DNA of 34,845 nucleotides from positions 1 to 34,845 of the forward strand of contig CANROR010000003.1 in assembly GCA_947632275.1 (NCBI GenBank). The letters run 5' to 3'. A program made the translations under genes and the position numbers. This DNA comes from an uncultured Bacilli bacterium (lineage in GTDB: Bacteria; Bacillota_I; Bacilli_A; RF39; UBA660). Shown in pieces: positions 15,398-33,110 of this stretch (the stretch's first letter is position 1; each line of letters starts with the position of its first letter). The notes beneath the pieces were generated by a model that was not told where the DNA came from, did not search any database, and saw only the letters and a list, made by a program, of their open reading frames with translations.

Positions 15398-15460
15398 GGT
15401 ACAAATCATAAAACAAAAACGGTACAAATCATAAAGTAAAAATGGTACAAAATATAAAAT
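15398..15460 (+). repeat. Three tandem direct repeats with a 23-bp period
   Basis: GGTACAAATCATAAA at 15398 and 15421, GGTACAAAATATAAA at 15444. Confidence 0.9.
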
Positions 15461-15515: not shown

Positions 15516-16784
15516 ATGAAAGAATATATGCCAAGAATTATTGATAAAATTTTAAAAAATAAATTAGAATATATGGGAGCTGTGGTAATCGAAGGACCTA
15601 AATGGTGTGGCAAGTCTACTACTGCTAAAAATATTGCTAAAAGTTTAATAGAACTACAAGATCCTGATAATAAAATTCAGTATGATAATATTAATGCTAC
15701 AAAGCCTTCTTTATTTTTAGAAGGAGAAAAACCTCGGTTATTAGATGAATGGCAAATGTATCCTGTTATTTGGGATTCGATTAGAACCGATGTAGATAGA
15801 ACAGGATTAAAAGGCCAATATATTCTTACAGGATCAACTAATATGTTAAATATTAATCATAAAACGATGCACAGTGGCACAGGAAGAATTGCTAAACTTA
15901 CGATGCGACCAATGTCACTATATGAATCTGGTGATTCTAATGGAAAAGTTTCCTTAGAAGATATCATTAATGGTAAAGATATATCTGGCGTATCGAATTT
16001 AGAATTAGAGGATATTATAAATGTTATAATTCGCGGTGGTTGGCCAGAATCTATTAATATTCCCGGGGATAATAAATATAAAATTGTTCGCGACTACGTA
16101 TATAGCTTATATAATGAAGAGGTAAGAAAAATTGATGGCGTTGAAAGAGATAAAATAAAAATGGAAGCTTTACTTAAAAGTCTTAGTCGAAACATTTCAA
16201 CTTCCGTTAGTAAATCAACTATAGCTAGTGATGTTGCCAATGTCTTTTCTAAAGAAGTATCTATGCCCACGGTAAATGATTATTTAATTACCTTAGAAAA
16301 ACTATTTGTTTTAGAATATGTTCCAGCAACTAATTTAAATTTGCGATCTTCTATTCAATTAAGAACTAGTCCCAAACTAGAATTAGTTGATCCTTCAATT
16401 GCTATTGCGGCTTTAGGCTTAAATAGAAATGATTTAATAAATGATTTAAATTTCATGGGCTTTATTTTTGAAAATTTATGTTATCGTGATTTAAAAATAT
16501 ACGCAGAGGCAATAGATGCTAATTTATTTTATTATCGTGATAATAAAGATTTTGAAGTTGATTTTATCCTTAAAACGGCTAATGATAAATGGGGGGCTAT
16601 TGAAGTTAAATTAGGAGCTAAGCAAATTGATGAAGCTGCCGAAACTCTTAAAAAATTTAAAACTAAAGTAGATTTAAAGAAAAGTGGAGAACCAGCATTT
16701 TTAATGGTTTTAACCGGTTCTAGTTTATCCTATGTAAGAGAAGATGGGGTTTATGTTGTATCAATTGGCAATTTAAAAAATTAA
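15516..16784 (+). CDS. AAA_14 ATPase with DUF4143 and C-terminal PD-(D/E)xK-like domain
   Basis: Walker A GPKWCGKST, Walker B LLDEWQ, ILTGS, RGGWP, FENL and EVDFIL...AIEVK motifs. Confidence 0.88.
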   Translation: MKEYMPRIIDKILKNKLEYMGAVVIEGPKWCGKSTTAKNIAKSLIELQDPDNKIQYDNINATKPSLFLEGEKPRLLDEWQMYPVIWDSIRTDVDRTGLKGQYILTGSTNMLNINHKTMHSGTGRIAKLTMRPMSLYESGDSNGKVSLEDIINGKDISGVSNLELEDIINVIIRGGWPESINIPGDNKYKIVRDYVYSLYNEEVRKIDGVERDKIKMEALLKSLSRNISTSVSKSTIASDVANVFSKEVSMPTVNDYLITLEKLFVLEYVPATNLNLRSSIQLRTSPKLELVDPSIAIAALGLNRNDLINDLNFMGFIFENLCYRDLKIYAEAIDANLFYYRDNKDFEVDFILKTANDKWGAIEVKLGAKQIDEAAETLKKFKTKVDLKKSGEPAFLMVLTGSSLSYVREDGVYVVSIGNLKN

Positions 16785-16792
16785 GATAATCA

Positions 16793-16845
16793 ATCGTAAT
16801 AAATTGCCAAAATATTGAAAAAATTACGCTGTGGCGTAATTTTTT
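16793..16845 (+). repeat. 53-bp direct repeat, copy 2, containing a bidirectional terminator
   Basis: ATCGTAATAAATTGCCAAAATATTGAAAAAATTACGCTGTGGCGTAATTTTTT; begins 9 nt after the ATPase stop. Confidence 0.95.
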
Positions 16846-16853
16846 GCGGTTTA

Positions 16854-17289
16854 TTAATCTTTTTTTGCTTTATTTTGTTCTGAATTTTTTCTACGATATT
16901 TAACAATAATTAGGGAAGATGCTAATAAAATAATAGCAATGCACCCTAAAATATAATATCCATTATAATTTTTAGGAGGATAAAAACTATTCATTAATTC
17001 ATCAACTACTGGTGTTCTTTGCGTTAAAAATTCTTTTATTTGATTTAAATCGTGGCCAGGAATTGTTCCCCAACGATCTTGTTCTTTGGTAAATACTTCT
17101 TGAGGAATTTGATTTTCAAAATTATTAAATTCTTGCATAACATAATCAACATTTAGAAATTCTTTCTTTCATCTTTTTGGCTAGCCATATTGGATAAGTT
17201 ACCATTTAAATATAGCTTTGGCAATTCATTGGCTTTAACCATTGGAATACTTAAAACTAAAATTATAAAATAACAAATTTATTCATCAT
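16854..17289 (-). pseudogene. Probable internally deleted, frameshifted CotH-like secreted/anchored protein
   Basis: Three frame pieces: MMNKFVIL*, then signal-peptide-like IILVLSIPMVKA-NELPKLYLNGNLSNMASQKDERK, then KEFLNVDYVMQEFNNFENQIPQEVFTKEQDRW...LNQIKEFLTQRTPVVD plus a C-terminal TM helix. Both ends resemble CotH-family termini, recognised by eye. Confidence 0.55.
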
Positions 17290-17385
17290 TACATCTTATT
17301 CTTTGTTCAATTATATAATTGAGTGATAAAAGTCAAAATTTTAAATTGTTAAAAACTTAATATCTAAAAAATTTGATAAAAAAAC

Positions 17386-17414
17386 TTGAAAATATATATA
17401 TATATATATATAAT
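17386..17414 (+). promoter_or_regulatory. SigA promoter with a (TA)10 tract in the spacer
   Basis: TTGAAA (17386-17391), 17 bp, TATAAT (17409-17414); (TA)10 spans 17393-17412. Confidence 0.85.
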
Positions 17415-17463
17415 TAGGGGGATAGGGGGAAAATCAATTTTTTAAAAATATGTAGGAGAAATT

Positions 17464-18168
17464 ATGAAAACGTTATCAGTTTATCGAACAGAAAATAAGT
17501 ATATTATAAATTCTATTCAAATGCAAAATATAAAAGCTAAATTGGATAAAATCTTAAAAAGAGATTTTCATTCCCAAAATGGTAGTTATATGGTTAGAAG
17601 TTTATATTTTGATTCAATTAATAATATTGATTTTCAAACTAAATTAGCCGGCACGGAAATACGAAAAAAAATTAGAATAAGAACATATGATACGCATGCT
17701 AATAAATGCAAATTAGAAATGAAAGCTAAAAATGGTGATAATCAACATAAAATTAGCTTATGGATTACGAAAGACGATACTTACCAATTAATAAATCGAA
17801 AATTTGATGTTTTAAAAAAATATTTTAATACAAATGAAGCAGCAATAGATATTTACTTAACAATGAGATTAGGTTGCTACATACCGGTTGTAATGGTGGA
17901 ATATGAACGGATTGCGTATACTTATCCTATTAATAATGCGAGAATTACATTTGATTTTAATATAAAAAGTTCTGAAAGTAATTTTGATTTATTTGATTCT
18001 AATATTTTATACAATAATATAATGTTAGAAAATATAGTTTTGGAAGTTAAATATAATGGTAAAAGTATTAGTTTTATAAATAACATTTTAAATAAGTTTA
18101 AAATTGTAAAAACATCAATAAGTAAATATTGTTTAAGTCGATATATATTTTATGATTTTAATTTTTAG
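17464..18168 (+). CDS. VTC-domain (polyphosphate polymerase-like, CYTH/TTM fold) protein
   Basis: RxExKY, VRSLYFDS, RKKIRIRTY, LEMK, VEYERIAY, RITFD, VLEVKY and SISKY motifs. Confidence 0.88.
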   Translation: MKTLSVYRTENKYIINSIQMQNIKAKLDKILKRDFHSQNGSYMVRSLYFDSINNIDFQTKLAGTEIRKKIRIRTYDTHANKCKLEMKAKNGDNQHKISLWITKDDTYQLINRKFDVLKKYFNTNEAAIDIYLTMRLGCYIPVVMVEYERIAYTYPINNARITFDFNIKSSESNFDLFDSNILYNNIMLENIVLEVKYNGKSISFINNILNKFKIVKTSISKYCLSRYIFYDFNF

Positions 18169-18178
18169 GAGGTAAAAA

Positions 18179-18847
18179 ATGACAAAAGAAAAAATATTTA
18201 ATTACTTTTTAACAAATAATGCTAATTTAGGAGTAAAAATGATTGTTTTTACCATGTTAGCAGCATTAGTAATTGCTAGTATAATTTATGTAACTTATTA
18301 TAATACTCATAAAGGTGTTGCTTATAATAAAGGGTTTAATGCTTCATTAATAATTGTTTTATTAATTTCGGTTGTAATAATGCTAATGATAAGTAGCAAT
18401 ATTGTTATTTCTTTAGGGATGGTCGGAGCATTATCAATAGTTCGTTTTCGGACGGCAGTAAAGGATAGTAGAGATACAATTTTTATATTTTGGTCGATAA
18501 CTGAAGGTTTATGTGTTGGTTCTTTGAATTTTAAATTAGCTTTTATAACGACGTTATTTATTTCCATAATTTTATTAATTCTTACTAATTTGCCAAAATT
18601 AAATTGTAAATATTTACTTGTAATTACGGGAAATAATATTGATAATTTGGCAATCGAAAAAATCTTAAATACGTATTCAACACATAATAAGATAAGATCA
18701 AATAATAAGAATGAAGAAAGTCAAGAAATAATATATGAAATAAGAACTAAAAAAGAATTAGATGCTAATATAGTAAACGAATTAGTAAAAACAAAAGGAA
18801 TTGAAACTGTAAATTATGTTATTGAATCTAGCGAAACAGTTGGTTAA
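18179..18847 (+). CDS. DUF4956 membrane protein
   Basis: ISLGMVGALSIVRFRTAVKD..D..FIFWS signature, 4-5 TM helices and a small soluble C-terminal domain. Confidence 0.88.
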   Translation: MTKEKIFNYFLTNNANLGVKMIVFTMLAALVIASIIYVTYYNTHKGVAYNKGFNASLIIVLLISVVIMLMISSNIVISLGMVGALSIVRFRTAVKDSRDTIFIFWSITEGLCVGSLNFKLAFITTLFISIILLILTNLPKLNCKYLLVITGNNIDNLAIEKILNTYSTHNKIRSNNKNEESQEIIYEIRTKKELDANIVNELVKTKGIETVNYVIESSETVG

Positions 18848-18849
18848 TT

Positions 18850-21063
18850 ATGAAAACTAAATTTTTAAAATGGCAATTAGTTATTACAATTGGTATTTTT
18901 CTTATAGTAATATTTTCTTTTTATTATTTTGAAAATAAAAATTTAAAAGCATACCCGGATGATGTTTTATCGTTTAATATTAATAGTGGTTTTTATGATA
19001 AAGAAATTGATATCGAAATTAAAAAATCATTTTCTTTGCCATTTGGAACCAAATTATATTACACCTTAGATGGGAATGATCCCTCAAATGAAAGCAATTT
19101 ATATACAGGTAAAATTTCTTTATCCCTTGATGAAAAAAATTTAAAAGTTTATCCTTTAAAAGTTGTTGCATATTATAAAGGCAATTATAGTGAAATTTAT
19201 AATGAAACTTACATATTGGATAAAGAAATAAAAGAAAATGATATAACACTTATAAGTATTACCTCGGATGAAAAAAATTTATATGATTATGATAAAGGTA
19301 TTTTAGTTAAAGGAGCAAATGATAACTATTATCAACGAAGTGATGATTGGCTAAGGGATGCCCATATTGCCATTTTTAGTGAAAAAGGCGAAAATTTATT
19401 ATCCCAAAATATATTGTTGGGAGTATCAGGGGGAAGTAATTCTTCTGAAAATCCCAAATCATTTAAAATAAAGGCCATAAATGAGGAAAAATTAAATTTA
19501 AATTTTTATGATGAAGATTATAAAGCGTCTTTTTCCTTAATAAATAATTATAATAGTTTAAGATTAAGATCAGGATCTCAAGATTTAAAAACTGGAAATA
19601 TCCGTTCAGGAATAATTAGCCAACTTGCTAGTGATAGTAATTTTGACGGTGCTTCAATTTCTAAAAGAGCAGTAGTATTTCTTAACGGTGAGTTTTATGG
19701 TATTCACGATATAGAACAAAATTATTCAAATTCTTTTTTAGCTAAAAAATATTCTTTACCAAATTCTGATTTAATTGAAAAATATAAGGGTAAGGATATT
19801 ACAACGACAGTTGACGCTAAAATAATTCAATATTTTTATCAAGATTTAAATATGGAACAAAATCGACAAGAATTAGAAAAATATGTGGATATGGATAGTT
19901 ATTTATTTTATTATGCTATTGAAATTTTAGCTAATAATATTGATTGGCCAAATAATAATTTTGAAATATGGCGTTACACCGGTGAGTACAATCCAAATAA
20001 TAAATATACGGACGGAAGATATAGATTTTTAATTTATGATGTTGATGCCATTTTTTCTGGAGATATCCATATTGGCGATTTAGGGGATGATTATCGTGAT
20101 GTATTAATGTTAATTATGAATAATATGTACAATCAACAAAATACATCATTTGTTCAAGTAATGAAATCAACTTATTATCGAAATAAATTTGTTAGAATTG
20201 TAGAAGATTTATTAAATACATCTTTTTCTAGAGAAAATATGCTAAAAATTGCTGATGAAGAAGCTAATAAAATTAATAAAGCAGTTTCAACTTATTACAC
20301 GAAAGAAGAAAAAAATAATTTTTTATATCATGTTGAGTATATAAAAGAAAATATGGAAAATCGGAAAAAAGAAATTGAAAATGACTTTAATCAATTATTT
20401 GCTTTAAAAGAAAAACATAAAATAAATATTGCTTCTACCACTGGGATGAAAATTTATTGGAATAATGTGGAATTATTGCAAAATGAACAATATGAAAATG
20501 AATATTATACCGATATTAAATTGGATTTTCATTACGAAGAATACCCAGGGTATAAATTTCAATATTGGCTTGTAAATGGTAAAAAAATATATGATAAAGA
20601 TTTAATTATTGACAACAATTATAAAAATAAAAATGTGGAAATTAAAATTGTAACGGAATATGTACCAGATATAAATCATTTAATAATTAGTGAAATTTAT
20701 TCTAATGGAAGCTATGATTGGATAAAAATTACTAATACGGGAAAAAATGAGATTAATTTAAAAAATTATTTTCTTTCGGATAATATAAATAAATTAGATA
20801 AATATCGGTTACCAGATGTAATTTTAAAAAGTAATCAAAGTATAATTATAAATGGTAGCAAAAATTATTATGCGTTAGGAGATTATATTTCAAATTTTAA
20901 TTTAAAAGAATATGAATATCTTTATTTGACTTATAATGATCAAATATGCGATAGTTTACAAGTGCCAAGAACATCAAGTATCGAAACATATGGTCGAGTT
21001 GATAATAGTAATACTTTTAAATTTTTCATAAATTATAATAATTTACGAAAAAATAATACGTAA
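18850..21063 (+). CDS. CotH-family kinase with N-terminal membrane anchor, Fn3-like domain and C-terminal lamin-tail-like domain
   Basis: N-terminal TM helix, SGFY...YYTLDGNDPS, VFLNGEFYGI, DWPNNN, RYRFLIYDVD; C-terminal LIISEIYS..DWIKITN....INLKNYFLSD. Confidence 0.85.
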   Translation: MKTKFLKWQLVITIGIFLIVIFSFYYFENKNLKAYPDDVLSFNINSGFYDKEIDIEIKKSFSLPFGTKLYYTLDGNDPSNESNLYTGKISLSLDEKNLKVYPLKVVAYYKGNYSEIYNETYILDKEIKENDITLISITSDEKNLYDYDKGILVKGANDNYYQRSDDWLRDAHIAIFSEKGENLLSQNILLGVSGGSNSSENPKSFKIKAINEEKLNLNFYDEDYKASFSLINNYNSLRLRSGSQDLKTGNIRSGIISQLASDSNFDGASISKRAVVFLNGEFYGIHDIEQNYSNSFLAKKYSLPNSDLIEKYKGKDITTTVDAKIIQYFYQDLNMEQNRQELEKYVDMDSYLFYYAIEILANNIDWPNNNFEIWRYTGEYNPNNKYTDGRYRFLIYDVDAIFSGDIHIGDLGDDYRDVLMLIMNNMYNQQNTSFVQVMKSTYYRNKFVRIVEDLLNTSFSRENMLKIADEEANKINKAVSTYYTKEEKNNFLYHVEYIKENMENRKKEIENDFNQLFALKEKHKINIASTTGMKIYWNNVELLQNEQYENEYYTDIKLDFHYEEYPGYKFQYWLVNGKKIYDKDLIIDNNYKNKNVEIKIVTEYVPDINHLIISEIYSNGSYDWIKITNTGKNEINLKNYFLSDNINKLDKYRLPDVILKSNQSIIINGSKNYYALGDYISNFNLKEYEYLYLTYNDQICDSLQVPRTSSIETYGRVDNSNTFKFFINYNNLRKNNT

Positions 21064-21086
21064 TTAAACAAAATAATTCGCTAAAT

Positions 21087-21115
21087 TTGCATTTTTGGCA
21101 TATATATGCTATAAT
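21087..21115 (+). promoter_or_regulatory. SigA promoter of the acetyltransferase gene
   Basis: TTGCAT-17 bp-TATAAT with extended -10 TG; spacer contains the palindrome GCATATATATGC. Confidence 0.7.
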
Positions 21116-21158
21116 TAAGACACATCAGGGGAAATTACTAATTTAGAAGGGGGAAATT

Positions 21159-21881
21159 ATGGAAAATATTATTAAAGGAAAAAATGTAATTGTTCATCCT
21201 ACGGCAATTATTTATCCTAATGTCATTTTACATGATAACGTTTTTATAGGGCCATACTGTATTATTGGCGAACCAACTTCGGATTACTATAAAGATCCTG
21301 ATAATCATGTATTTAAAACGACGGAAATTGGGGAAAATTCAATTATTAGATCAAATAGTATAATTTATGAAGATGTGCATATTGGTAATAATTTTCAAAT
21401 GGGACATCATGCAACGATAAGAGAACAAACTGTTATTGGTGATAATTGTTCGCTTGGTACTTTAGGTGATATTCAAGGTAAAGCTAAAATTGGTAATTTT
21501 GTAAGAATGCATTCCAATAGTCATGTTGGTCAATTTACAACTATTAAAGATTATGTATGGATATTTCCATATTCTATCACGATTAATGATAAGTATCCAC
21601 CAATGGATAAGTTAGTTGGTTGTACGATTGAAGAATATGCGCTTATAACAACCGGTTCAATAATTATGCCGGGGGTAAAAGTTGGTAAAAATGCCCTGGT
21701 AGCGCCTGGTTGTGTAGTGACCAAAGATGTTAAAGATGAAATGGTAGTAATGGGCGTACCAGCCAAAGAAAAATGTTCGATAAGAGATATTCGGGATGAA
21801 GAAGGAAATCCAGTTTATCCTTGGAAAGATTATTTAAAAGAAGATCGCGGATATCCTTGGCAAAGAAAAAGAACTAAATAA
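21159..21881 (+). CDS. Hexapeptide-repeat (LbH) N-acyltransferase, probably for a nucleotide amino sugar
   Basis: Extensive [IV]GxNxxI repeats, INDKYP, VVTKDV and GVPAK motifs. Confidence 0.82.
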   Translation: MENIIKGKNVIVHPTAIIYPNVILHDNVFIGPYCIIGEPTSDYYKDPDNHVFKTTEIGENSIIRSNSIIYEDVHIGNNFQMGHHATIREQTVIGDNCSLGTLGDIQGKAKIGNFVRMHSNSHVGQFTTIKDYVWIFPYSITINDKYPPMDKLVGCTIEEYALITTGSIIMPGVKVGKNALVAPGCVVTKDVKDEMVVMGVPAKEKCSIRDIRDEEGNPVYPWKDYLKEDRGYPWQRKRTK

Positions 21882-21884
21882 AGT

Positions 21885-21908
21885 GAGGAACAGTATTTGT
21901 TCCTTTTT
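21885..21908 (+). terminator. Intrinsic terminator
   Basis: AGGAACA-GTATT-TGTTCCT stem followed by a T-run. Confidence 0.7.
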
Positions 21909-21990
21909 GTTTGTTAAAAATTGAGAAATTTGTTATACTAGTAATGCTAAAAATAATTTGTTATAATTAAAGTAGTTGAGGTGAATTAAT

Positions 21991-22785
21991 TTGAAAACAT
22001 TTATGAATAATATAATGTATAGTTTGCAAAAATATAAATTTTTGATGTCGCAATTAGTTAGTCGAGATTTTAAAGTTAAGTATAAAAGAAGCGTTTTAGG
22101 GATTGTTTGGAGTTTACTGTATCCGGTTTTAACTATGGCTGTTATGGCTTTAGTATTTACCAATATGTTTAAAATGAGTATGCCTGGCGTTAATTATTTG
22201 GTATATTTAATGAGTGGTTTGGTTCTATTTAACTATTTTAGTGAAGCATCAAATCTTGCTATGAGTAGTGTGGTAGGCAATTTTAGCTTACTTAATAAAG
22301 TTTATATTCCTAAATATATTTTTCCACTTTCTAAATGTCTATTTGTAGGAATTAACTTTTTGCTTACTTTAATTCCTTTATATGCAATTATTCTTTTAAC
22401 GGGAACTGGATTAAACTGGTATCATTTATTACTTCCATTTGCCTTTATTTGTTTATTTTTATTTACTTTAGGAATGGGTTTTATTTTATCGACGATTTCC
22501 GTATTTTTAAGAGATATGTTTTATATATATGGCGTTGTTTTAACTTTATGGACATATATGACACCAATTATGTATGATTTTGCCATGATTCCTACCCAAC
22601 TTCAATTTATTTTTAAATTAAATCCATTATTTTGGATTCTATATTTTGTTCGGGATATTATTATTTATCATCAAGTTCCGGGAATTAATGTTTGGATATA
22701 TTGTTTATTATTTGCTTTTGGCTTCCTTTTTATTGGAATGTTTGTATTTAAGAAAAATCAAGATAAATTTATTTATTATGTATAG
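21991..22785 (+). CDS. wzm: ABC-2 polysaccharide export permease
   Basis: RDFKVKYKRSVLGIVWSLLYP, TPIMY and LNP motifs; SD GAGGTG before TTG. Confidence 0.92.
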   Translation: MKTFMNNIMYSLQKYKFLMSQLVSRDFKVKYKRSVLGIVWSLLYPVLTMAVMALVFTNMFKMSMPGVNYLVYLMSGLVLFNYFSEASNLAMSSVVGNFSLLNKVYIPKYIFPLSKCLFVGINFLLTLIPLYAIILLTGTGLNWYHLLLPFAFICLFLFTLGMGFILSTISVFLRDMFYIYGVVLTLWTYMTPIMYDFAMIPTQLQFIFKLNPLFWILYFVRDIIIYHQVPGINVWIYCLLFAFGFLFIGMFVFKKNQDKFIYYV

Positions 22786-22793
22786 GTGATAAA

Positions 22794-23573
22794 ATGAAAA
22801 AGACGAAAAAAGATGTAATGATTAAAGTTGATAATGTTTCTATGCGATTCAATTTAGGAATTGATAAAGGATTTTCTTTAAAGCAAGGCTTTGTTAATAT
22901 GTTAGATCCTAAAAAAAGAAAAGCCCAAAAAGAAGCTAAAGATAAAAATGAATTTTGGGCTTTAAAAGATGTAAGCTTCGAAGTAAATCGCGGTGAAGTC
23001 ATTGGTTTTATCGGTTCCAATGGGGCAGGAAAATCAACCCTTTTAAAAGTAGTTGCGGGCGTTATGAAACCTACCAAAGGGAAAGTGGAAGCGTATGGTA
23101 ATATTTGCCCTATGATTGAACTGGGGGCCGGTTTTGATTCACAACTTACGGCTCGGGAAAATATTTATTTAAATGGAGCAGTTTTAGGTTATCCTAAAGA
23201 ATTAATTGAGGCTAAATTTCAAGAAATTGTTGATTTTTCCGAATTACATGACTTTTTAGATGTCCCTGTCCAAAACTTTTCTTCTGGGATGGTGGCAAGA
23301 TTAGCTTTTAGTATTGCTACCATTGTCGAACCCGAAATTTTAATTGTTGATGAAATTTTAGCAGTAGGTGACATGGCTTTTCAAAAAAAGAGTTTAAATA
23401 AAATGATGAGTATGATAAAAGGCGGAACAACAGTCCTATACGTTTCTCATTCAATTGATCAAGTAAAAAGCTTATGCGATAAAGCCGTATGGTTAGAACA
23501 TGGGGTTGTTCAAGATGCTGGTGATTGCGAAAAAATTTGTAAAAAATATGAGGATTTTGTTAATAATAGATAG
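22794..23573 (+). CDS. wzt: ABC polysaccharide export ATP-binding protein without C-terminal carbohydrate-binding domain
   Basis: FWALKDVSF, GSNGAGKST, FSSGM signature, ILIVDE and VSH motifs; 259 aa. Confidence 0.93.
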   Translation: MKKTKKDVMIKVDNVSMRFNLGIDKGFSLKQGFVNMLDPKKRKAQKEAKDKNEFWALKDVSFEVNRGEVIGFIGSNGAGKSTLLKVVAGVMKPTKGKVEAYGNICPMIELGAGFDSQLTARENIYLNGAVLGYPKELIEAKFQEIVDFSELHDFLDVPVQNFSSGMVARLAFSIATIVEPEILIVDEILAVGDMAFQKKSLNKMMSMIKGGTTVLYVSHSIDQVKSLCDKAVWLEHGVVQDAGDCEKICKKYEDFVNNR

Positions 23574-23584
23574 GTTGTGAAGAA

Positions 23585-24649
23585 TTGAAAAAAATAATTT
23601 TCTTTAGCAAAAATATGCAAATTGGCGGAATGGAAAAAGCCTTATTAAATTTACTTAATGCTTTAGTAAATTATTTTGATGTTACCTTAGTTTTGGAAGA
23701 AAATAAAGGCGAATTATTACCATATTTAAATAAAAAAATTCATGTTCAAGAGTATAGACTATCATATTCTAAATTTTTGTTATGGAAAAAAGGTTATAAC
23801 TATCTTAAAAGAAAAATTTGGACCTTAAAAAATAAAAACAAATATGATTTTGCGTGTAATTATGCTACGTATTCTATTATTGGTTCGTATCAAGCTTTAC
23901 AAGCATCACGAAATAATATGTTATACGTTCATAGTGATTACTATAATGTTTATAATAAAGATAAAACATTAATTAAAAATTTTTTTAATAGTGTTAAAAT
24001 GGAAGAGTTTAAAACTGTTGCTTTTGTTTCCAATGAAGCTCGGGATAATATATTAAAAATATATCCGCATAAAAAAAATAATTTTGTAGTGATTAATAAT
24101 TTATTTGATTATAAAACTTTAAAGAAAACTAATAAAATAGTAAAAAATAAAAAGAAGACCTTTTTATTTTTGGGAAGATTTGAAGAAGAATCGAAAAAAA
24201 TTTACCGATTGCTTGATGCTTTAAAAATTTGCTTACGGGCAAATTGTGATTATGAATTATGGCTAGTCGGTAGTGGCAAAGATAAAAAAAATTATCAAGA
24301 TTATGTGATAGAAAATAAGTTAGAGGCTAATGTTAAATTTTTTGATGCAACTATAAATATTTCTCCTTTTTTAGAAAAATGTGATATACTGGTACTTGGT
24401 TCGGAATACGAAGGATTTCCGGTTGTCTATCTTGAGGCATTATACTTTAATAAAAAAATTCTTACAACTGTAAAGGTAAGTGATGATTACTTAGATATAA
24501 GTAATTATGCTTTGGTTGTTGCCAAAAATGCTAAAGCTATTGCCAAAGGTATGCAAAGTATAAAGAAAAATAATTGCAATTATGCGATAGATTTTGCTAA
24601 ATACAACAAAAGTATTTTAGAAAAACTAAAAACAATTATTTATAATTAA
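23585..24649 (+). CDS. GT4-family glycosyltransferase
   Basis: IGGMEKAL, LGRF..K and SEYEGFPVVYLEA motifs. Confidence 0.88.
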   Translation: MKKIIFFSKNMQIGGMEKALLNLLNALVNYFDVTLVLEENKGELLPYLNKKIHVQEYRLSYSKFLLWKKGYNYLKRKIWTLKNKNKYDFACNYATYSIIGSYQALQASRNNMLYVHSDYYNVYNKDKTLIKNFFNSVKMEEFKTVAFVSNEARDNILKIYPHKKNNFVVINNLFDYKTLKKTNKIVKNKKKTFLFLGRFEEESKKIYRLLDALKICLRANCDYELWLVGSGKDKKNYQDYVIENKLEANVKFFDATINISPFLEKCDILVLGSEYEGFPVVYLEALYFNKKILTTVKVSDDYLDISNYALVVAKNAKAIAKGMQSIKKNNCNYAIDFAKYNKSILEKLKTIIYN

Positions 24650-24662
24650 AGTGGTGAGCGTT

Positions 24663-25853
24663 ATGAAAAATGAATTATTTACAATTATTCTATTATATTA
24701 CAAACAACCCAAACTGATTTATGAAGCTTTGGATTCCGTGTTAAAGCAAGACTATAAAAATATTGAGTTAATTATTACAGATGACGGATCAGCATTAAAT
24801 ACTACTAAAATAAAAAAATATATTGATAAAAATAACAGTGGTAATATAACAAATTTACGATTTGTAATAAACGAAAAAAATATTGGTACAGTTAAAACAT
24901 CTAATAAAGCTTTAAGAATTGCTAAAGGTAGTTATATTTTAATTTTTGCGGCCGATGATGCTCTTTATAGTAAAACTGTTATTTCTAATTTTGTTTCTAA
25001 TTTTAAAAATAACTCTAACGATTTTATCCTTACTGCTCAAGCTATAATGTATAATCAAACATTAACGAAATCTTATGGCAAATATGTTAACGTTAAAAAA
25101 GCTTATCATAATAATTATTTAAGCGCAAAAAATCAATACCTGGCGATGTGTGATAATTGTATTTATGGAGCCGGGGCTACCGCATATCGTAAAGAAGTTT
25201 TTGAAAATCTTAATTATTTCAATGAAGATTACTTTTTAGTGGAGGATTGGAGCTTTTGGTTAAGAGCAACGAGATGTGGATATAAGATTAAGTTTATTAA
25301 TTTTATTGCGTTAAAGCATCGTGATGGGGGTGTAAGTAAAAGTGAAAATCAGCACCGAAAAAAATCAATGACGGTTTGTCGTTACTATTATGATTTGGCT
25401 TTAATAAATGTAAATGAAATTTTACCGTATTTAAATCATTTTCATATAATAAGAAATATAAATGTATTAAAAAAATATAATAGCATTATATATTTTTTAA
25501 ATTGTAATGTGAAAGATATGGTAACGTCTAAAATTTATTCTCGCAAATTATATTATCAAATTCCCGAATATTTTATATATAAAGTGTTAATAAAAATAAA
25601 AGCTTTAGTTTTAAAAATACTAAGAAAAATAAAAAGATTATTAATTATTTCACTAAAACTTATAAAAAAAATAATAAAAGGAATATTAAAAAATAGTATT
25701 TGGTTATTATTAAATTTTATAGTTCTAGCTATTAAAGATAATTATTTAAAAATATTTATTATTATTTTAAATTTTTATTTAAGTTTATTGATTAAATATT
25801 ATTTGCTAGCAATTGTATTTAATAAAAAAGTAGAGGTATTATATGAAAAATGA
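24663..25853 (+). CDS. GT2-family glycosyltransferase with hydrophobic C-terminus
   Basis: ELIITDDGS, FAADD and EDW motifs. ATG 24663 chosen by comparison with the paralog. Confidence 0.87.
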   Translation: MKNELFTIILLYYKQPKLIYEALDSVLKQDYKNIELIITDDGSALNTTKIKKYIDKNNSGNITNLRFVINEKNIGTVKTSNKALRIAKGSYILIFAADDALYSKTVISNFVSNFKNNSNDFILTAQAIMYNQTLTKSYGKYVNVKKAYHNNYLSAKNQYLAMCDNCIYGAGATAYRKEVFENLNYFNEDYFLVEDWSFWLRATRCGYKIKFINFIALKHRDGGVSKSENQHRKKSMTVCRYYYDLALINVNEILPYLNHFHIIRNINVLKKYNSIIYFLNCNVKDMVTSKIYSRKLYYQIPEYFIYKVLIKIKALVLKILRKIKRLLIISLKLIKKIIKGILKNSIWLLLNFIVLAIKDNYLKIFIIILNFYLSLLIKYYLLAIVFNKKVEVLYEK

Positions 25854-26925
25854 ATTATTTACCATTATTATTACTAATTATAATCAAGAAAAATATATTT
25901 TTGATGCCATAAATTCTGTATTAGAACAAACTTATTCAAATATTGAGTTAATAATTACGGATGATTGTTCTAAAAAATTTGACCAAGCTAAAATCACTAG
26001 ATATATTGAAGAAAATTCTAATATTAATTTTGAATTTGTGGTTAATGAAGAAAACTTAGGGACAGTAAAAACTTTAAATAAAGCATTAAAAAGAGTTAAA
26101 GGAGAATTTTTTTTATTTTTTGCTGCGGATGATGAATTACAAAATAAAAATGTTGTTAATAACTTCATTAAGGCATTTAAAAAGAATAAGAATGACATAA
26201 TTTCATCGATTTGTCTTTTATGTGATAATAAAATGGAACAAATAATTGATAAATTTCCACATAAAAAAAATATTGAAAAATTTAATCAAAAATCGGCTTT
26301 GAAACAAAATAGAATGCTAAAATTAGGCCCAATCTTTGCTCCTGGAGCTACGGCATATAGATCGAATATTATGAAAAAAATTAATTATTTAGACGAAAAT
26401 TATTTTTTAATAGAAGACTGGCCGACATTTTTAAAATTGACTAGATTAAAAAATAAAATTTATATTGCTAATTTTATTAGCATGAAACATCGGGGTGGCG
26501 GTGTAAGCGAAGAAATGAAATTGGCTAAAGAAACGATTATAAAGATTTTAAAAGATACTGATCGAACATATCGTAAAGAAGTATTTATTTCTTTCAAAAA
26601 ATTAAGTTTAGAAGAAAAATTACAAATTTTAGATCGCTATCAAAGATTTAGTTACGCATATGGTTTTAAATATTGGCCAATTTATTTTAAATATTATTCA
26701 TTAATTTTTACTAATTTAGATGTATTATTACATAAATTATCTTATAGTAAAACAGTAGTTTTTAAAATATTTTTACCCATTGTTTCATGTATGTTAGCCG
26801 GAATTTTATTCTTATTATTAAATAATGTTTATATCTTGATATTTGGAAGCGTTTTAATTTATTTATTTTTAAGAGTTATAATTAGTCAAATTTTTTATAG
26901 GAGGATAAGAAATGAAAAAAAATAA
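25843..26925 (+). CDS. GT2-family glycosyltransferase, paralog of the previous gene
   Basis: ELIITDDCS, FAADD and EDW motifs; two C-terminal TM helices. Confidence 0.88.
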   Translation: MKNELFTIIITNYNQEKYIFDAINSVLEQTYSNIELIITDDCSKKFDQAKITRYIEENSNINFEFVVNEENLGTVKTLNKALKRVKGEFFLFFAADDELQNKNVVNNFIKAFKKNKNDIISSICLLCDNKMEQIIDKFPHKKNIEKFNQKSALKQNRMLKLGPIFAPGATAYRSNIMKKINYLDENYFLIEDWPTFLKLTRLKNKIYIANFISMKHRGGGVSEEMKLAKETIIKILKDTDRTYRKEVFISFKKLSLEEKLQILDRYQRFSYAYGFKYWPIYFKYYSLIFTNLDVLLHKLSYSKTVVFKIFLPIVSCMLAGILFLLLNNVYILIFGSVLIYLFLRVIISQIFYRRIRNEKK

Positions 26926-28003
26926 TCAAAAAATAATACCAATTATGTTTTGCTTTGATAAAAACTATGTTATTCCTGCATCGGTTGCTTTTTATTCTTT
27001 ATTAGAGCATGCCGATAAGACTTATTATTATAAATTTTATGTATTAAATAGTGATATATCAAAAGAACAACAAAAAAAATTAAAAGAAACTTTAAAAGAA
27101 TTTGAAAAAAATTATGACATTACGTATATTGATATGAAAAATAAATTTGAAGATGTTTGGGAAAATCTTAAATCTAAAGTTCATTTTTCTAAAGAAGTAT
27201 TGTATAAGTTGTTGATGTCTAGTATTTTTCCACAATATGATAAAATGATAGTTACTGATGTTGACGTAGTTTTTTTAGATGATATTTCGAAAAGTTATTT
27301 TGCTTTTGAACCTAATGAAGACTATTATGTAGCTGGAGTAAAATCAATTGGCGTTTTGAAGCAATTTAACACTGTTTATGACGGAAAATTTTCGCCGGAA
27401 ATGGTTAAAAAGTTAAGTAATGTTTGTGGCGGTTACTTGGTTTTTAATTTAAAGAAAATAAGAGAAGATAACATGGAAGAAAAATTTGTTAAATTTTTAA
27501 AAGAAAACGTTGATAATCTTATTTATTTGGAACAAGACGTTATAAATGCTTGTTGTTATGGCAAAATAAAATATTTACCGCTTAGCTATGTTACTTGCAC
27601 TTACATGTGGACTTTATATGGCTCTAAAGAAGAAATGGAAAGAGATGAAACATATTCATATAAAGAATTAACATATGCGATGAATCACCCAATTCAACTT
27701 CATTATGCTTCGACGGAAAAGCCTTGGAAATATGTGGATTGTGTAAAATCAGAAGTATGGTTTAGTTATATTGTTAAAACGGCATTTTTGCGCGACTTTC
27801 TTGAACAATTGCCGCATATGATAGTACTTCCAACAAAAGATGCTAATTCTAGCAATGGTGAAAATAATAATTCGAACGTAGTAAAACCTTCAAAAATAAA
27901 ACGGATTTTAAAATATATAAAAAATAATCCATTCTTTTTCTTAAAAAAGGAATTTTATCAAAAACTTATTAACAAAATAAAATGGAAACTAAGAAGAAAA
28001 TAA
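26912..28003 (+). CDS. GT8-family glycosyltransferase
   Basis: IMFCFDKNY, DVD (DxD), EQDVIN and HYASTEKPW motifs. Confidence 0.88.
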   Translation: MKKNNQKIIPIMFCFDKNYVIPASVAFYSLLEHADKTYYYKFYVLNSDISKEQQKKLKETLKEFEKNYDITYIDMKNKFEDVWENLKSKVHFSKEVLYKLLMSSIFPQYDKMIVTDVDVVFLDDISKSYFAFEPNEDYYVAGVKSIGVLKQFNTVYDGKFSPEMVKKLSNVCGGYLVFNLKKIREDNMEEKFVKFLKENVDNLIYLEQDVINACCYGKIKYLPLSYVTCTYMWTLYGSKEEMERDETYSYKELTYAMNHPIQLHYASTEKPWKYVDCVKSEVWFSYIVKTAFLRDFLEQLPHMIVLPTKDANSSNGENNNSNVVKPSKIKRILKYIKNNPFFFLKKEFYQKLINKIKWKLRRK

Positions 28004-28055
28004 TATACTTTTTAGTTTTTTTTTGTTATACTTTTATTAGATAGTGGAGGTTATA

Positions 28056-29006
28056 ATGCTTAAGAATTGCAAATTAGTAGAATTTCATAATTTTAAAGAC
28101 GATCGCGGAAATTTGGTAGCTATTGAAAATCCCAAAAACTTAGATTTTCCTATTAATAGAATCTATTATATATATGGTGTAGACAGTGATGCAGAAAGAG
28201 GATTTCATTCTCACAAAATATTACATCAAGTTTTAATAGTTGTATCGGGAAGTGTTAAAATTAGAATTAGTACTAATAACGAAGAAGAAACTGTACTTTT
28301 GGATGACCCATCTAAAGGATTATATATTGGGCCAATGATCTGGCGAGAAATGTATGATTTTTCCAAAGATGCAGTGCTTTTAGTTTTAGCTAGCGAAAAA
28401 TATGACGAAAGTGACTATATTCGCGATAAGGATGAATATTTAAAATTAGCCAGTGAATATTTTTCTAATAATGATAAAGATATAGTAATGCATAGTAAAA
28501 ATTTTAAAATGAAATACGTAACATTAGGCGATGCAGATTTTATTTTGAAACTTCGAACTAATGAAACACTTGGTCAGTATATATCACCAACTGATAATTC
28601 ATTATATAAACAAATTAGTTGGTTAAATGAGTATAAAAAAAGAGAGCGTGAAAAAAAAGAATTTTATTTTAAAACTTATAACGATAATGAAGATATTGGC
28701 TTTTTTAGATTATATAATATAGATTATAATAAAAAAGAATTAACATTTGGTAGCTTTATCTTTAAAGAAAACAAACCTAAATATGCAGCAATTGAATCTA
28801 TAATCGTAGCCATGGAAATTGCTTTTAAAAAATTGCAAGTGCAAAAAGTATATTTAGATGTAAGAGTTAAAAATATTAAAGCTAAAAATTTTTATAATCG
28901 TTTTGGTTTTCAAAAAATAAACGAAGATGATTTAAATGAATATTATGAACTAACTAAAGATGAATATGACAAATTATATGAAGAAAAATATAAAGAATTT
29001 TTATAG
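28056..29006 (+). CDS. FdtA/QdtA-type dTDP-4-keto-6-deoxyglucose 3,4-ketoisomerase fused to a GNAT acyltransferase
   Basis: N-term DDRGNL, RIYYIY, RGFHSH, WREM and LLVLASEKYDESDYIR. C-term GNAT: DADFILKLR, GSFIF, LDVRVKNIKAKNFYNRFGF. SD GGAGG. Confidence 0.88.
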   Translation: MLKNCKLVEFHNFKDDRGNLVAIENPKNLDFPINRIYYIYGVDSDAERGFHSHKILHQVLIVVSGSVKIRISTNNEEETVLLDDPSKGLYIGPMIWREMYDFSKDAVLLVLASEKYDESDYIRDKDEYLKLASEYFSNNDKDIVMHSKNFKMKYVTLGDADFILKLRTNETLGQYISPTDNSLYKQISWLNEYKKREREKKEFYFKTYNDNEDIGFFRLYNIDYNKKELTFGSFIFKENKPKYAAIESIIVAMEIAFKKLQVQKVYLDVRVKNIKAKNFYNRFGFQKINEDDLNEYYELTKDEYDKLYEEKYKEFL

Positions 29007-29018
29007 GAGGAAGGAAAA

Positions 29019-30104
29019 ATGAAAATACCATTTGCGACAGTTGTGCCAATGCACAAAGAAATCGAAGAAGAATTAAAGGGGGCAATTAATAAGGTTATCG
29101 ATGATGGCCTATTTATTGGTGGTGATCCAGTAAAGAAATTTGAAGAAGATTTTGCTCAATATTTAGGAGTAAACTATTGTGTCGGTGTAGGGAATGGACT
29201 TGAAGGTATTCTTTTAGCTCTTGAAGCTATGGGAGTTCAAGCTGGTGATGAAGTAATTGTGCCATCACATACATTTATTGCTACTACACTTCCTATTTCG
29301 AGATTAGGGGCTAAAATCGTTTTTGTGGAACCTGATGAATTTTATACGATTGATGTTAATAAAATAGAAGAAAAAATCACGGACAAAACGAAAGCCATAA
29401 TTGTAGTTCATTTATATGGTCAATGTGCTAATATGGAACCAATAATGGAAATAGCGCATCGGCATAATATAAAAGTATTAGAAGATGCGGCTCAAGCTCA
29501 TGGGGCAACTTATAAAGGCAGAAAAGCAGGTTCTTTAGGAGATGTCGCCGAATTTAGTTTTTATCCGGGCAAAAATTTAGGTTGCTTAGGTGATGGTGGT
29601 TGTGTTGTTACCAATGATCAAGAAATTGCCGATAAAGTAAGAGCTTTGGGAAATTATGGTTCTTTTATCAAATATAAACATATTTATAAAGGCTATAATT
29701 CCAGATTAGATACCATGCAAGCGGCGGCTTTGGATGTAAAATTAAAATATCTAGATAAATGGAATAAAAGAAGACAAGAAGTGGCGACAAGATATATAAA
29801 TGAAATTAAAAATCCTAAGGTTATTTTACCAAAAGTAAGAGAAGACAATACGCATGTATGGCATGTTTTTGTTGTAAGAGTAGAAAATAGAGAAGAATTT
29901 ATGAAATATTTAGAAGATAAAGGTATTCAAACATTGATTCATTATCCAACGGCTATTCATAAACAAGAAGCATATAAGGAATTAAATAATGAAGTTTATC
30001 CTTTAGCTGAAAAATATGCCAAAGAAGTTGTTAGCTTGCCAATGTATTATGGCTTAACAGAAGAAGAGGTAAGTTACGTTATTGATGCCATTAATAATTA
30101 TTAG
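29019..30104 (+). CDS. fdtB: DegT/DnrJ/EryC1/StrS aminotransferase (FdtB/QdtB-type)
   Basis: [31 protein letters not shown] and GYNSRLD motifs; follows the fdtA-like gene. Confidence 0.88.
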
Positions 30105-30119
30105 GAGGTTTTAAGGTTT

Positions 30120-30992
30120 ATGAAAGGAATTATTCTTGCCGGTGGTAAAGGAACAAGACTTTATCCGATGACGAAAGTTGTTTCCAAGCAACTTTTACCG
30201 CTTTATGATAAACCCATGATTTATTATCCCTTATCAATTTTAATGCTTGCGAGCATTCGGGATATTTTAATTATTTCCACTCCAAAAGATTTACCCCTTT
30301 ATATCGAACTTTTAGGTGATGGTTCTAATTATGGGATAAATTTAAGTTATAAAGTTCAAGAAGAACCAAAGGGTTTAGCGGAAGCATTTATTTTAGGAGA
30401 AGAATTCATTGGCAAAGATTCCGTTTGTTTAATTTTAGGTGATAATGTTTTCTATGGGCAAGGAATGACTAAACTTCTTCGCGAAGCCGAAAATAATAAT
30501 ACGGGAGCAACTATTTTTGGTTTTCCAGTTAAAAATCCTGAAGAATTTGGTGTAGTTAATTTTGATGAAAATAGAAACGTTACAAGTATTGAAGAAAAAC
30601 CGAAAAATCCTAAATCTAATTATGCCGTGCCTGGTTTATATTTTTATGATAATAATGTAGTTGAAATTGCCAAAAATATTAAACCATCGGCGCGTGGAGA
30701 ATTAGAAATTACTAGTGTAAATAATGAATATTTAAAACAAGGTAAATTAAAAGTTGAACTCATGAATAGAGGTATTGCATGGCTAGATACAGGAACAACT
30801 CATAATATGTTGAAAGCTGCCAGTTTTATTCAAGAAATTCAAGATATGCAAGGATTATATATTGCATCTTTAGAAGAAATTGCTTGGCGGCGAGGTTTTA
30901 TTGATGATGCTAAATTAAAGGAATTAGGTAACGATTTAATCCAAACGGATTATGGTAAATATTTATTATCTTTATTAGAAAGGAAAGATTGA
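30120..30992 (+). CDS. rfbA: Glucose-1-phosphate thymidylyltransferase
   Basis: [34 protein letters not shown] and WLDTGT motifs. Confidence 0.96.
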
Positions 30993-30994
30993 AA

Positions 30995-31999
30995 ATGAAA
31001 TTTTTAGTTACTGGTGGGGCTGGGTTTATTGGTTCAAATTATTTACATTATGTTGTAAATAAATATCCGGAAGATTATTTTGTTTGTTTAGATGCTTTAA
31101 CTTATGCCGGAAATTACAATAATATTAAAAGTTTAGAAGGAAAAGAAAATTATAAATTTGTTAAAGGTGATATTCGCGATAACAAATTTATTGATCAACT
31201 TTTTAATGACGAAAAATTTGATATTGTAATTAATTTTGCGGCCGAATCGCATGTGGATAATTCAATCAAGAATCCTAATCTTTTTGCGGATACCAATGTG
31301 TTAGGAACAATGACTTTGCTTAATGCATCTAAAAAATATAATGTTAAAAGATATCATCAAGTATCAACTGACGAAGTATATGGTGACCTGCCTTTAGATC
31401 GCCCGGATTTAAAATTTAAAGAAACCACCCCAATTCATACATCAAGCCCTTATTCGGCATCAAAAGCCGGAGCTGATTTACAAGTTTTAGCGTATGCTCG
31501 AACTTTTGGCATACCTGTTACTATTTCAAGATGCTCCAATAACTATGGCCCTTATCAATTTCCAGAAAAATTAATTCCAGTTGTTATATCCAAAGCTTTA
31601 AATAATGAAGCTATTCCGGTTTACGGTAAAGGCGAAAATGTTCGGGATTGGATTCATGTTCATGATCACAATGTGGGCGTTGATTTAATTGTCCGAAATG
31701 GTCGAGTAGGTGAAATATATAACTTAGGAGGCCATTCAGAAAAATCAAATTTAGATGTTGTTAAAACAATTTTAAAACATTTAGAAAAAGATGAATCTTT
31801 AATTAGTTTTGTAACAGATCGACCTGGTCATGATTTAAGATATGCGATTGATTCCACGAAAGTTGAAGAAGAACTAGGTTGGACGCGTACTTATAATTTT
31901 GATGAAGGTATCAAAGAAACCATTGATTGGTATGTTAATAATCAAGAATGGATTGAAGAAATAAAAACAGGAAAATATAAGGAAGCATATAAAGGATAA
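30995..31999 (+). CDS. rfbB: dTDP-glucose 4,6-dehydratase
   Basis: VTGGAGFIG, FAAESHVD, STDEVYG, YSASK and DRPGHDLRY motifs. Confidence 0.96.
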   Translation: MKFLVTGGAGFIGSNYLHYVVNKYPEDYFVCLDALTYAGNYNNIKSLEGKENYKFVKGDIRDNKFIDQLFNDEKFDIVINFAAESHVDNSIKNPNLFADTNVLGTMTLLNASKKYNVKRYHQVSTDEVYGDLPLDRPDLKFKETTPIHTSSPYSASKAGADLQVLAYARTFGIPVTISRCSNNYGPYQFPEKLIPVVISKALNNEAIPVYGKGENVRDWIHVHDHNVGVDLIVRNGRVGEIYNLGGHSEKSNLDVVKTILKHLEKDESLISFVTDRPGHDLRYAIDSTKVEEELGWTRTYNFDEGIKETIDWYVNNQEWIEEIKTGKYKEAYKG

Positions 32000-32099: not shown

Positions 32100-32128
32100 T
32101 TGCAAAAATATATATATATATATATAAT
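32100..32128 (+). promoter_or_regulatory. SigA promoter with a (TA)9 tract in the spacer
   Basis: TTGCAA (32100-32105), 17 bp, TATAAT (32123-32128); (TA)9 spans 32109-32126. Confidence 0.85.
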
Positions 32129-33109: not shown

Positions 33110-33110
33110 A

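Follow-up and report, generated by a model that had tools for sequence, protein, structure and literature searches.

TA-spaced promoters across the genome of an uncultured gut Bacilli bacterium: candidate slippage switches ahead of a VTC-DUF4956-CotH operon and a secreted-protein family

The promoter of the VTC-DUF4956-CotH operon in the stretch of DNA analysed here (34,845 nucleotides; hereafter the window) has a perfect (TA)10 microsatellite in the spacer between its -35 and -10 hexamers. This tract is one of about 29 TA-spaced promoters distributed genome-wide, and not a one-off, a point missed by an earlier sequence-only reading of the window. Collectively, these promoters look like a genome-wide set of slippage-driven on/off switches. 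We lean, with modest confidence, toward the whole explanation in which (TA)n spacers serve as slippage switches and the VTC operon is both ON and switchable. The window is contig C3 of a metagenome-assembled genome (G000) that measures 1.14 Mb in 97 contigs, has a G+C content of 29% and is 92% complete.

Phase variation through repeat-spaced promoters is textbook knowledge for a few pathogens, such as Haemophilus, Neisseria and the mycoplasmas. To our knowledge, it is hardly documented in uncultured gut commensals, and a literature search returned no account of promoters with (TA)n spacers, whether from gut Bacilli or from metagenome-assembled genomes. The main appeal of the present case is its scale, with about 29 copies in 1.14 Mb and recurrence in related species. 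The device heads, and is predicted to control, a large secreted-protein family, an accessory polyphosphate/CotH operon and a glycosyltransferase.

The features of the VTC locus and its surroundings are collected in Table 1. The sequence-only reading had described a TTGAAA-A(TA)n-TATAAT promoter with a spacer of exactly 17 bp, which direct reading of the sequence bears out; its corollary, that a single slipped unit would yield a spacer of 15 or 19 bp, holds as well. The final two units of the tract belong to the -10 hexamer itself, and the tract ends 51 nt upstream of the operon. Tandem Repeats Finder reported the repeat at 17392-17412 (period 2, 10.5 copies, 100% matches). A perfect short-unit repeat between -35 and -10 is a feature of phase variation by promoter-spacer repeats, and n = 10 falls in the hypermutable length range of the proven hif and Mycoplasma mycoides examples. 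A consensus scan placed the site, with 11 of 12 consensus matches, at the top of 36 promoter-like sites in 16500-21500. Such sites are not enriched over shuffled sequence (36 vs. 45.7 +/- 6.1), and hexamer matching alone therefore says little in DNA this rich in A and T. Transcription of the operon is predicted to start at about 17420-17422. The direct repeat at this point resembles the G-rich 5' UTR of a promoter cassette that recurs in the genome, as detailed below.

Table 1. Features of the VTC-DUF4956-CotH locus and neighbouring elements (positions in the window).
Feature	Position	Strand	Basis or context
DUF4143/AAA_14 ATPase gene, upstream of the VTC operon	15516-16784		
Terminator-like hairpin, 12-pair stem then T run	16818-16845	+	downstream of the DUF4143/AAA_14 ATPase gene
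-35 hexamer TTGAAA	17386-17391	+	sequence read and consensus scan
17-bp spacer, A(TA)8	17392-17408	+	sequence read and consensus scan
Perfect (TA)10 tract, proposed slippage-prone element	17393-17412	.	sequence read, Tandem Repeats Finder, genome tract census
-10 hexamer TATAAT	17409-17414	+	sequence read and consensus scan
Direct repeat TAGGGGGA x2 at the predicted transcript start	17415-17430	+	sequence read and Tandem Repeats Finder
Ribosome-binding site AGGAG, 5 nt ahead of the ATG at 17464	17454-17458	+	sequence read
VTC-domain protein (polyphosphate-polymerase-like), 234 aa	17464-18168	+	PF09359, E 9.4e-34
DUF4956 membrane protein, 222 aa	18179-18847	+	PF16316, E 2e-9
CotH kinase-family protein, 737 aa; also Fn3_assoc, CHB_HEX_C_1 and LTD (lamin-tail)	18850-21063	+	PF08757, E 2e-19
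Second same-class promoter: TTGCAA, AAA(TA)7 17-bp spacer, TATAAT	32100-32128	+	(TA)9 tract 32109-32126

The three operon genes are co-oriented with intergenic gaps of 10 and 2 nt, and each of their Pfam matches exceeds its cut-off. Because the terminator-like hairpin closes the upstream gene, the operon forms a separate transcription unit. Within the genus, the VTC protein was found in one of 56 genomes, namely the window's own, and no orthologue was found in the 55 others searched. The operon adjoins a glycan cluster (21159-31999) that includes an ABC-2 exporter, GT1, GT2 and GT8 glycosyltransferases, and FdtA-, DegT-, RmlA- and RmlB-like genes. Judged by domains and context, the CotH protein with its Fn3_assoc and LTD domains and the neighbouring glycan cluster are candidate surface or envelope traits. 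At the end of this cluster, the second promoter of the class stands ahead of genes for a GT2 glycosyltransferase (32153-33109) and a DUF6056 protein (33096-34664). The best relatives of this GT2 protein, in G062 and G065 (48-49% identical), have no TA tract upstream and are uninformative as orthologous promoters. The window also carries the sporulation genes SpoIIGA, sigma-E and GerA/B/C, which mark the organism as a spore-former and not a mycoplasma.

The combination of genes in the operon has precedents. CotH, VTC polyphosphate-polymerase and DUF4956 proteins constitute an accessory set of Gram-positive Pel exopolysaccharide loci (bioRxiv 10.1101/768473), and the set is also found in NELoc-2 of Clostridium perfringens (PMC2879425), according to the parts of these sources drawn on here. 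As in those loci, the three domain families are contiguous in the window and lie beside polysaccharide biosynthesis genes. Unlike the Pel loci, the window shows no pel genes, and DUF4832 was not found. A repeat-spaced promoter is not mentioned in the parts of either account that we drew on.

Some further features of the window can be recorded here. No known RNA was matched in it by Rfam at the gathering threshold, and NCBIfam offered no useful name for the operon proteins, for the secreted-protein family or for a minus-strand ORF at 16854-17138. The 94-aa product of this ORF, which lies between the terminator and the TA promoter, carries a hydrophobic segment at its C-terminus and matched no family, and the 5' end of the ORF shares 90% identity with G000 C5:2006-2068. 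The gap separating the sigma-E and DUF4143 ATPase genes holds a 23-nt tandem repeat (15398-15459; 2.7 copies, 84% identity).

A census of TA tracts in G000 counted 704 of three units, 58 of four and 5 of five, none of six to eight, and then 7 of nine, 19 of ten and 3 of eleven. The (TA)10 tract might in principle be a chance, functionless microsatellite in AT-rich intergenic DNA, as a G+C content of 29% in the genome and of 24-28% around the VTC promoter would allow. This idea is in effect refuted by the 29 tracts of at least nine units, against 0.0017 (TA)9 starts expected under a first-order Markov model of G000, and by the empty classes of six to eight units. Moreover, the long tracts share a common setting. 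A TTG- or TTTAC-type -35 hexamer lies at most 14 nt upstream of 28 of the 29, and in these same 28 a T placed two bases past the tract closes a TATAnT -10 hexamer (25 TATAAT, 3 TATAGT); the -35/-10 layout as a whole is present in at least 25. An ORF in matching orientation starts 26-160 nt downstream of 22 tracts. The seven others comprise three that run off contig ends, three interrupted by an intron and one, on C68, that has no -35 hexamer or other promoter context. The VTC tract is thus a strongly non-random promoter spacer in the ON register, the meaning of which is taken up below.

Most of these promoters (19 of 29) head a paralogous family of secreted proteins, 309-682 aa in length, with an N-terminal MKRK followed by a hydrophobic anchor. 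A common cassette is seen in 18 of the 19 family promoters: CTTGAA (or CTTGCA/ATGAA), (TA)n, ATTA, a G-rich stretch with GAAAGTAGGA, and ATG. The C41 tract heads a family gene without the G-rich UTR. A profile search for the family retrieved 33 ORFs, of which 17 have a tract upstream and 8 have none; the position of a contig end prevents assessment of another 8. Pfam gave only weak matches, to DUF6273, Laminin_G_3 and Glug, in three members, and an Atlas look-up pointed to DUF6273-type hypothetical proteins of Bacillota. Six promoters of the class lie outside the family, namely those of the VTC operon, the GT2 gene of the same window, and loci on C51, C77, C14 and C86. The C51 cargo is a small membrane protein, the C77 cargo presumably bears a SipW-like signal peptide, and the C14 and C86 loci are cut off by contig ends.

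The VTC promoter itself is related to the family cassette. Its region (17337-17425, plus strand) is 80% identical to the cassette at G000:C46:2228-2311 (E 6.6e-13), and window positions 17350-17419 are 83% identical to a (TA)10 promoter of G012. Given this homology, and with VTC found in no other of the genus genomes searched, the accessory operon appears to have picked up a copy of the native promoter cassette.

The same TA-spacer device occurs in four other genomes of the same bacterial family, with n = 8-16. Nine of the 56 genus genomes contain tracts of at least nine TA units; only G000, G062, G063 and G064 have them in large numbers. Searching for TTGMA, 0-4 nt and (TA)8, a pattern that misses TTGACA-type -35 boxes, identified the device in 5 of 56 genus genomes and in 11 of 301 genomes drawn from the order; in the order draw, many sites were found by this pattern only in G000, G062, G063 and G144, the last of which belongs to another genus. 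Tract lengths in G062 (15 tracts) are n = 8 (1), 10 (9) and 11 (5). G063 has at least 22 tracts, among which those examined have n = 8 (1), 9 (16), 10 (4) and 11 (1), and the 28 tracts of G064 have n = 9 (23), 10 (3), 12 (1) and 13 (1). In G144, seven tracts stand before a single paralog family, with n = 9, 10, 10, 10, 13, 15 and 16. The N-termini encoded behind TA promoters differ between species. It is the promoter device, rather than one gene family, that these comparisons indicate to be conserved. Solo TA promoters in three other genus genomes have spacers of 16-19 bp, as measured to the best -10 hexamer, and two solo promoters (G012, G064) precede lipoprotein-like N-termini.

Two observations from these comparisons stand apart. 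First, a second canonical promoter (TTGAAT, 17 bp, TG-extended TATAAT) follows some TA promoters by about 60-100 nt, at G000 C7:20395, C20:83, C32:1997, C92:546, C14:21719 and C86:90 and at many loci of G062-G064; its spacer contains an imperfect palindrome, ACATCTA..TAGATGT, a possible operator that is kept in four species. Second, a pair of loci in different genera (G270 L167 and G112 L169) have identical flanks around TA tracts of 13 and 9 units, respectively. The tract of this pair is enclosed by an inverted repeat, CCCTTCTTTGAA ... TTGAAGGG, in a hairpin-like and not promoter-like layout.

A different view of the tracts is that they are DNA-structure or mobile-element sites (a cruciform palindrome, a recombination site or a group II intron homing site), with the hexamers an AT-rich by-product. 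Indeed, (TA)10 is a perfect palindrome, promoter-like sites in 16500-21500 do not exceed those in shuffles, and GTGCGACC immediately follows 3 of the 29 G000 tracts and 4 of the 15 G062 tracts; on C72 this sequence leads on to an Rfam hit, RF02005 (group II intron D1-D4). We nevertheless consider this view improbable: all but one of the 29 G000 tracts end in TATAnT and are preceded, at a short and constant distance, by a -35-like hexamer, the ORF starts lie at 26-160 nt in matching orientation, and the intron appears to have inserted later, into promoters that already existed. The tract end has clearly served the intron as an insertion site; the intron seems to be homing to this point, turning TATAAT into TATAGT. 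Its copies, beginning with GTGCGACC after the last TA unit, are at G000 C67:6336, C70:5901 and C72:5535 (L036) and, in G062, at L070, L076, L080 and L082; the C72 match to RF02005 scores 49.7 bits and is cut off by the contig end.

If the tracts are promoter spacers, their length in base pairs should be read against what the genome otherwise uses. With the TA tracts masked, we tallied pairs of TTGACA-like and TATAAT-like hexamers by spacer across G000. At a stringency of 5 or more of 6 matches to TTGACA and 6 of 6 to TATAAT, the pairs numbered 11, 16, 6, 19, 48, 15, 12, 15 and 10 for spacers of 13 to 21 bp, and three other stringencies again gave a peak at 17 and a dip at 15. Ordinary promoters of G000 are therefore spaced by 17 bp, with 15 bp the least frequent value. 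By the genome's own standard, then, the proposal that the VTC operon is "currently ON" was right, its 17 bp being the peak of the masked promoter-like pairs.

The TA promoters as a class are distributed differently. In G000, spacers of 13 bp occur in 4, 15 bp in 16, 17 bp in 6, 18 bp in 1 and 20 bp in 1, with one tract assigned none. The corresponding figures are 11 bp (1), 15 bp (9) and 17 bp (5) for G062; 13 bp (2), 15 bp (16), 17 bp (3) and 19 bp (1) for the G063 promoters examined; 13 bp (1), 15 bp (20), 17 bp (2), 18 bp (1), 21 bp (1), 23 bp (1) and none (1) for G064; and 13 bp (1), 15 bp (3), 21 bp (1), 25 bp (1) and 27 bp (1) for G144. Pooled over the five genomes, 64 of the 100 TA promoters examined are at 15 bp and 16 at 17 bp. 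In G000, the 17-bp spacer is found at the VTC operon, GT2 and C51, at two members of the family that both have n = 11 (C2:18398 and C7:6460), and at one copy interrupted by the intron. On the most economical interpretation, unique genes stay in the ON register and most members of the multigene families lie one unit below it, the pattern that a population consensus should show if each cell expresses only a few of them. Two other assignments of the 15-bp class were rejected: a -10 hexamer TAATWA at 17 bp would lack the conserved T at -7, and recognition by sigma-H, with GAAT as -10, is at odds with the TTGCAA shown at that place by the G063 and G064 promoters.

Whether tract length changes was addressed by comparing cassettes within G000 over 40 + 40 flanking nucleotides. 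Six pairs share at least 80% of their flanking bases, and in four of these n is unequal; the closest three, with 74, 68 and 66 of 80 positions identical, have n = 11 vs. 9, 11 vs. 10 and 10 vs. 9. Near-identical cassettes that differ in n suggest that TA units are gained and lost faster than flanking bases change, and the range of n = 9-16 within one family of G144 points the same way. Homologous promoters, as far as these alignments go, thus demonstrably vary in n while their flanks stay alike, a statement about the class and not about the VTC locus itself. For the latter, a search for strain copies with the 20 nt just downstream of the tract gave three matches among metagenome contigs, all unrelated, of 45-50% G+C and without the tract. 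Assembly imposes its own limit on the family loci: the part of the cassette that does not vary spans about 48 nt, roughly one typical assembler k-mer, and many tracts have a contig end only 50-110 nt away, such that n may be mis-assigned to individual family loci. The VTC flanks are unique, and n = 10 should accordingly be the true majority allele there.

The main rival to switching is a spacer of fixed length. Here the tract would be a conserved design feature of the cassette, kept because it melts easily, is flexible, responds to supercoiling or is recognised by a dedicated factor; its length would be held by selection, with switching too rare to matter, and the cassette would have spread by duplication and been homogenised by gene conversion, leaving differences between copies as old fixed variants that tune strength. 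Several observations favour it. Tract lengths are narrowly spread, with 19 of 29 at n = 10 in G000, 23 of 28 at n = 9 in G064 and the gap at six to eight units. All five genomes share one modal distance from TTG to TATAAT, made up of TTGAA + (TA)10 in G000, G062 and G144 and of TTGCAAA + (TA)9 in G063 and G064, as if one had compensated for the other. Narrow lengths and a constant modal distance look like constraint or gene conversion, not free slippage, and cassettes resemble others of their own genome more than those of other genomes, an indication of concerted evolution. In the three unique 17-bp promoters the extra 2 bp are non-repeat A's and not an added TA unit, which hints at a stable n. 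G000 has both MutS and MutL, so slippage may be slower than in mycoplasmas. Finally, the genome has eight sigma-70 region-2 matches, leaving room for a dedicated sigma factor. One of these eight genes, G000 C87:339-548, lies directly upstream of a family member with a TA promoter (C87:2009).

Other observations are hard to reconcile with a fixed length. The modal 15 bp is the rarest spacing among other promoter-like pairs, which would make a poor sigma-A promoter as a fixed design, and neither the differences in n between near-identical cassettes nor the range of 9-16 units in the single G144 family would be expected of it. Furthermore, H. influenzae, the host of hif, also has mismatch repair. 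Perfect (TA)9-11 in the same position switches there, as described in the part of the source drawn on (PMC2651432). On balance, we regard a spacer fixed by concerted evolution or by selection on n as rather unlikely, and prefer slippage: the data support slipped-strand phase variation of the hif/Vmm kind as a probable property of the class.

The slippage mechanism we propose would run as follows. The (TA)10 tract would be the spacer of a sigma-A-type promoter, TTGAAA-17-TATAAT, the sole strong promoter predicted ahead of the VTC operon, and would belong to a lineage-specific class of (TA)n-spaced promoters that mostly head paralogous families of secreted or membrane-anchored proteins. Slipped-strand mispairing would add or remove TA units and thereby shift -35 and -10 relative to one another in 2-bp steps, with 17 bp ON and 15 or 19 bp weak or OFF. 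The VTC operon would be ON in the majority population and able to switch OFF and back, and a family with most members at 15 bp and few at 17 bp would generate combinatorial surface variation. Two elements of this proposal are inferred: a rate of slippage high enough to be of consequence inside populations, and a dependence of expression on n. Selection on such switching by phage or immunity, as the earlier reading had suggested, is conjecture.

This type of mechanism has well-described counterparts, which we summarise from the parts of the sources drawn on. A (TA)9-11 tract between hifA and hifB controls the fimbriae of H. influenzae (van Ham et al. 1993, via PMC2651432, PMC3899988). In M. mycoides strain 95010, poly-TA tracts of N = 10-16 precede lipoprotein genes (PMC3053259), and Vmm phase variation has been attributed to poly-TA promoter tracts (PMC3053259, PMC10502178). 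In JCVI-syn3A, (TA)13 between -35 and -10 is the OFF state and shortened alleles are ON (PMC10448532). Like hif, the present promoters have a perfect tract of 9-11 TA units as the -35/-10 spacer, with 2-bp steps that alter the spacing, and the hif cargo, as those portions describe it, is a surface structure. Unlike hif, a single bidirectional locus of a Gram-negative pathogen in the sections drawn on, they amount to about 29 unidirectional promoters in one genome; and the switching of hif was shown by experiment, as those sections report, whereas that of the present promoters is predicted from sequence.

The resemblance extends to the Vmm/Vmc systems of the M. mycoides cluster, where, within the passages drawn on, several paralogous surface-protein genes have a TA tract in the -35/-10 spacer with lengths that vary among copies, in hosts with small AT-rich genomes that are Bacilli in the wide sense. 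By the same passages, mycoplasmas have 5-6 such loci, compared to 29 here (about fivefold), and their cargo consists of lipoproteins, whereas the G000 family has an N-terminal membrane anchor and no evident lipobox when N-termini are read by eye. Lengths are also tighter here (9-11) than in the mycoplasma loci covered by those passages, and the device is used by the VTC-DUF4956-CotH operon and a glycosyltransferase as well. The G000 host, unlike a mycoplasma, is walled, spore-forming, equipped with MutS and MutL, and commensal. Compared by family name, no Vmm or Vmc entry was among the Pfam and NCBIfam matches. In sum, the type of mechanism is already known from hif and Vmm; the number of loci, the non-lipoprotein cargo, the type of host, the tight lengths and the recruitment to VTC are what differ.

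The wider picture can be drawn only tentatively, and we hold it to be somewhat less likely than not. A lineage of spore-forming Bacilli of the rabbit gut may possess a TA-spacer regulon of about 25-30 promoters per 1.1-Mb genome, most of them parked one slip short of 17 bp, such that any one cell would express a few members, drawn at random, of a family of some 20 secreted proteins. The portable cassette would have been recruited to accessory operons (VTC-DUF4956-CotH) and glycan genes, and parasitised by a group II intron homing to the tract end. If true, this regulon would be the largest dinucleotide contingency system described, and in a mismatch-repair-proficient commensal, not a pathogen. 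If the switching is real, single consensus genomes of such organisms conceal an extensive repertoire of surface combinations, and the genes that are ON in a host could be told from the tract lengths in sequencing reads.

Lastly, G000 contains homopolymer runs of 12-32 A or T bases, mostly at contig ends (C9:1, C26:490, C18:3, C52:8661, C5:31809, C12:24188, C37:10749 and others), which may be a second kind of variable tract or the tails of retroelements. Two pairs of them have the same flank and unequal length, namely A12 and A18 before GCAAGAGTTGCC, and A19 and T18 beside CTAGGGTTTTG.
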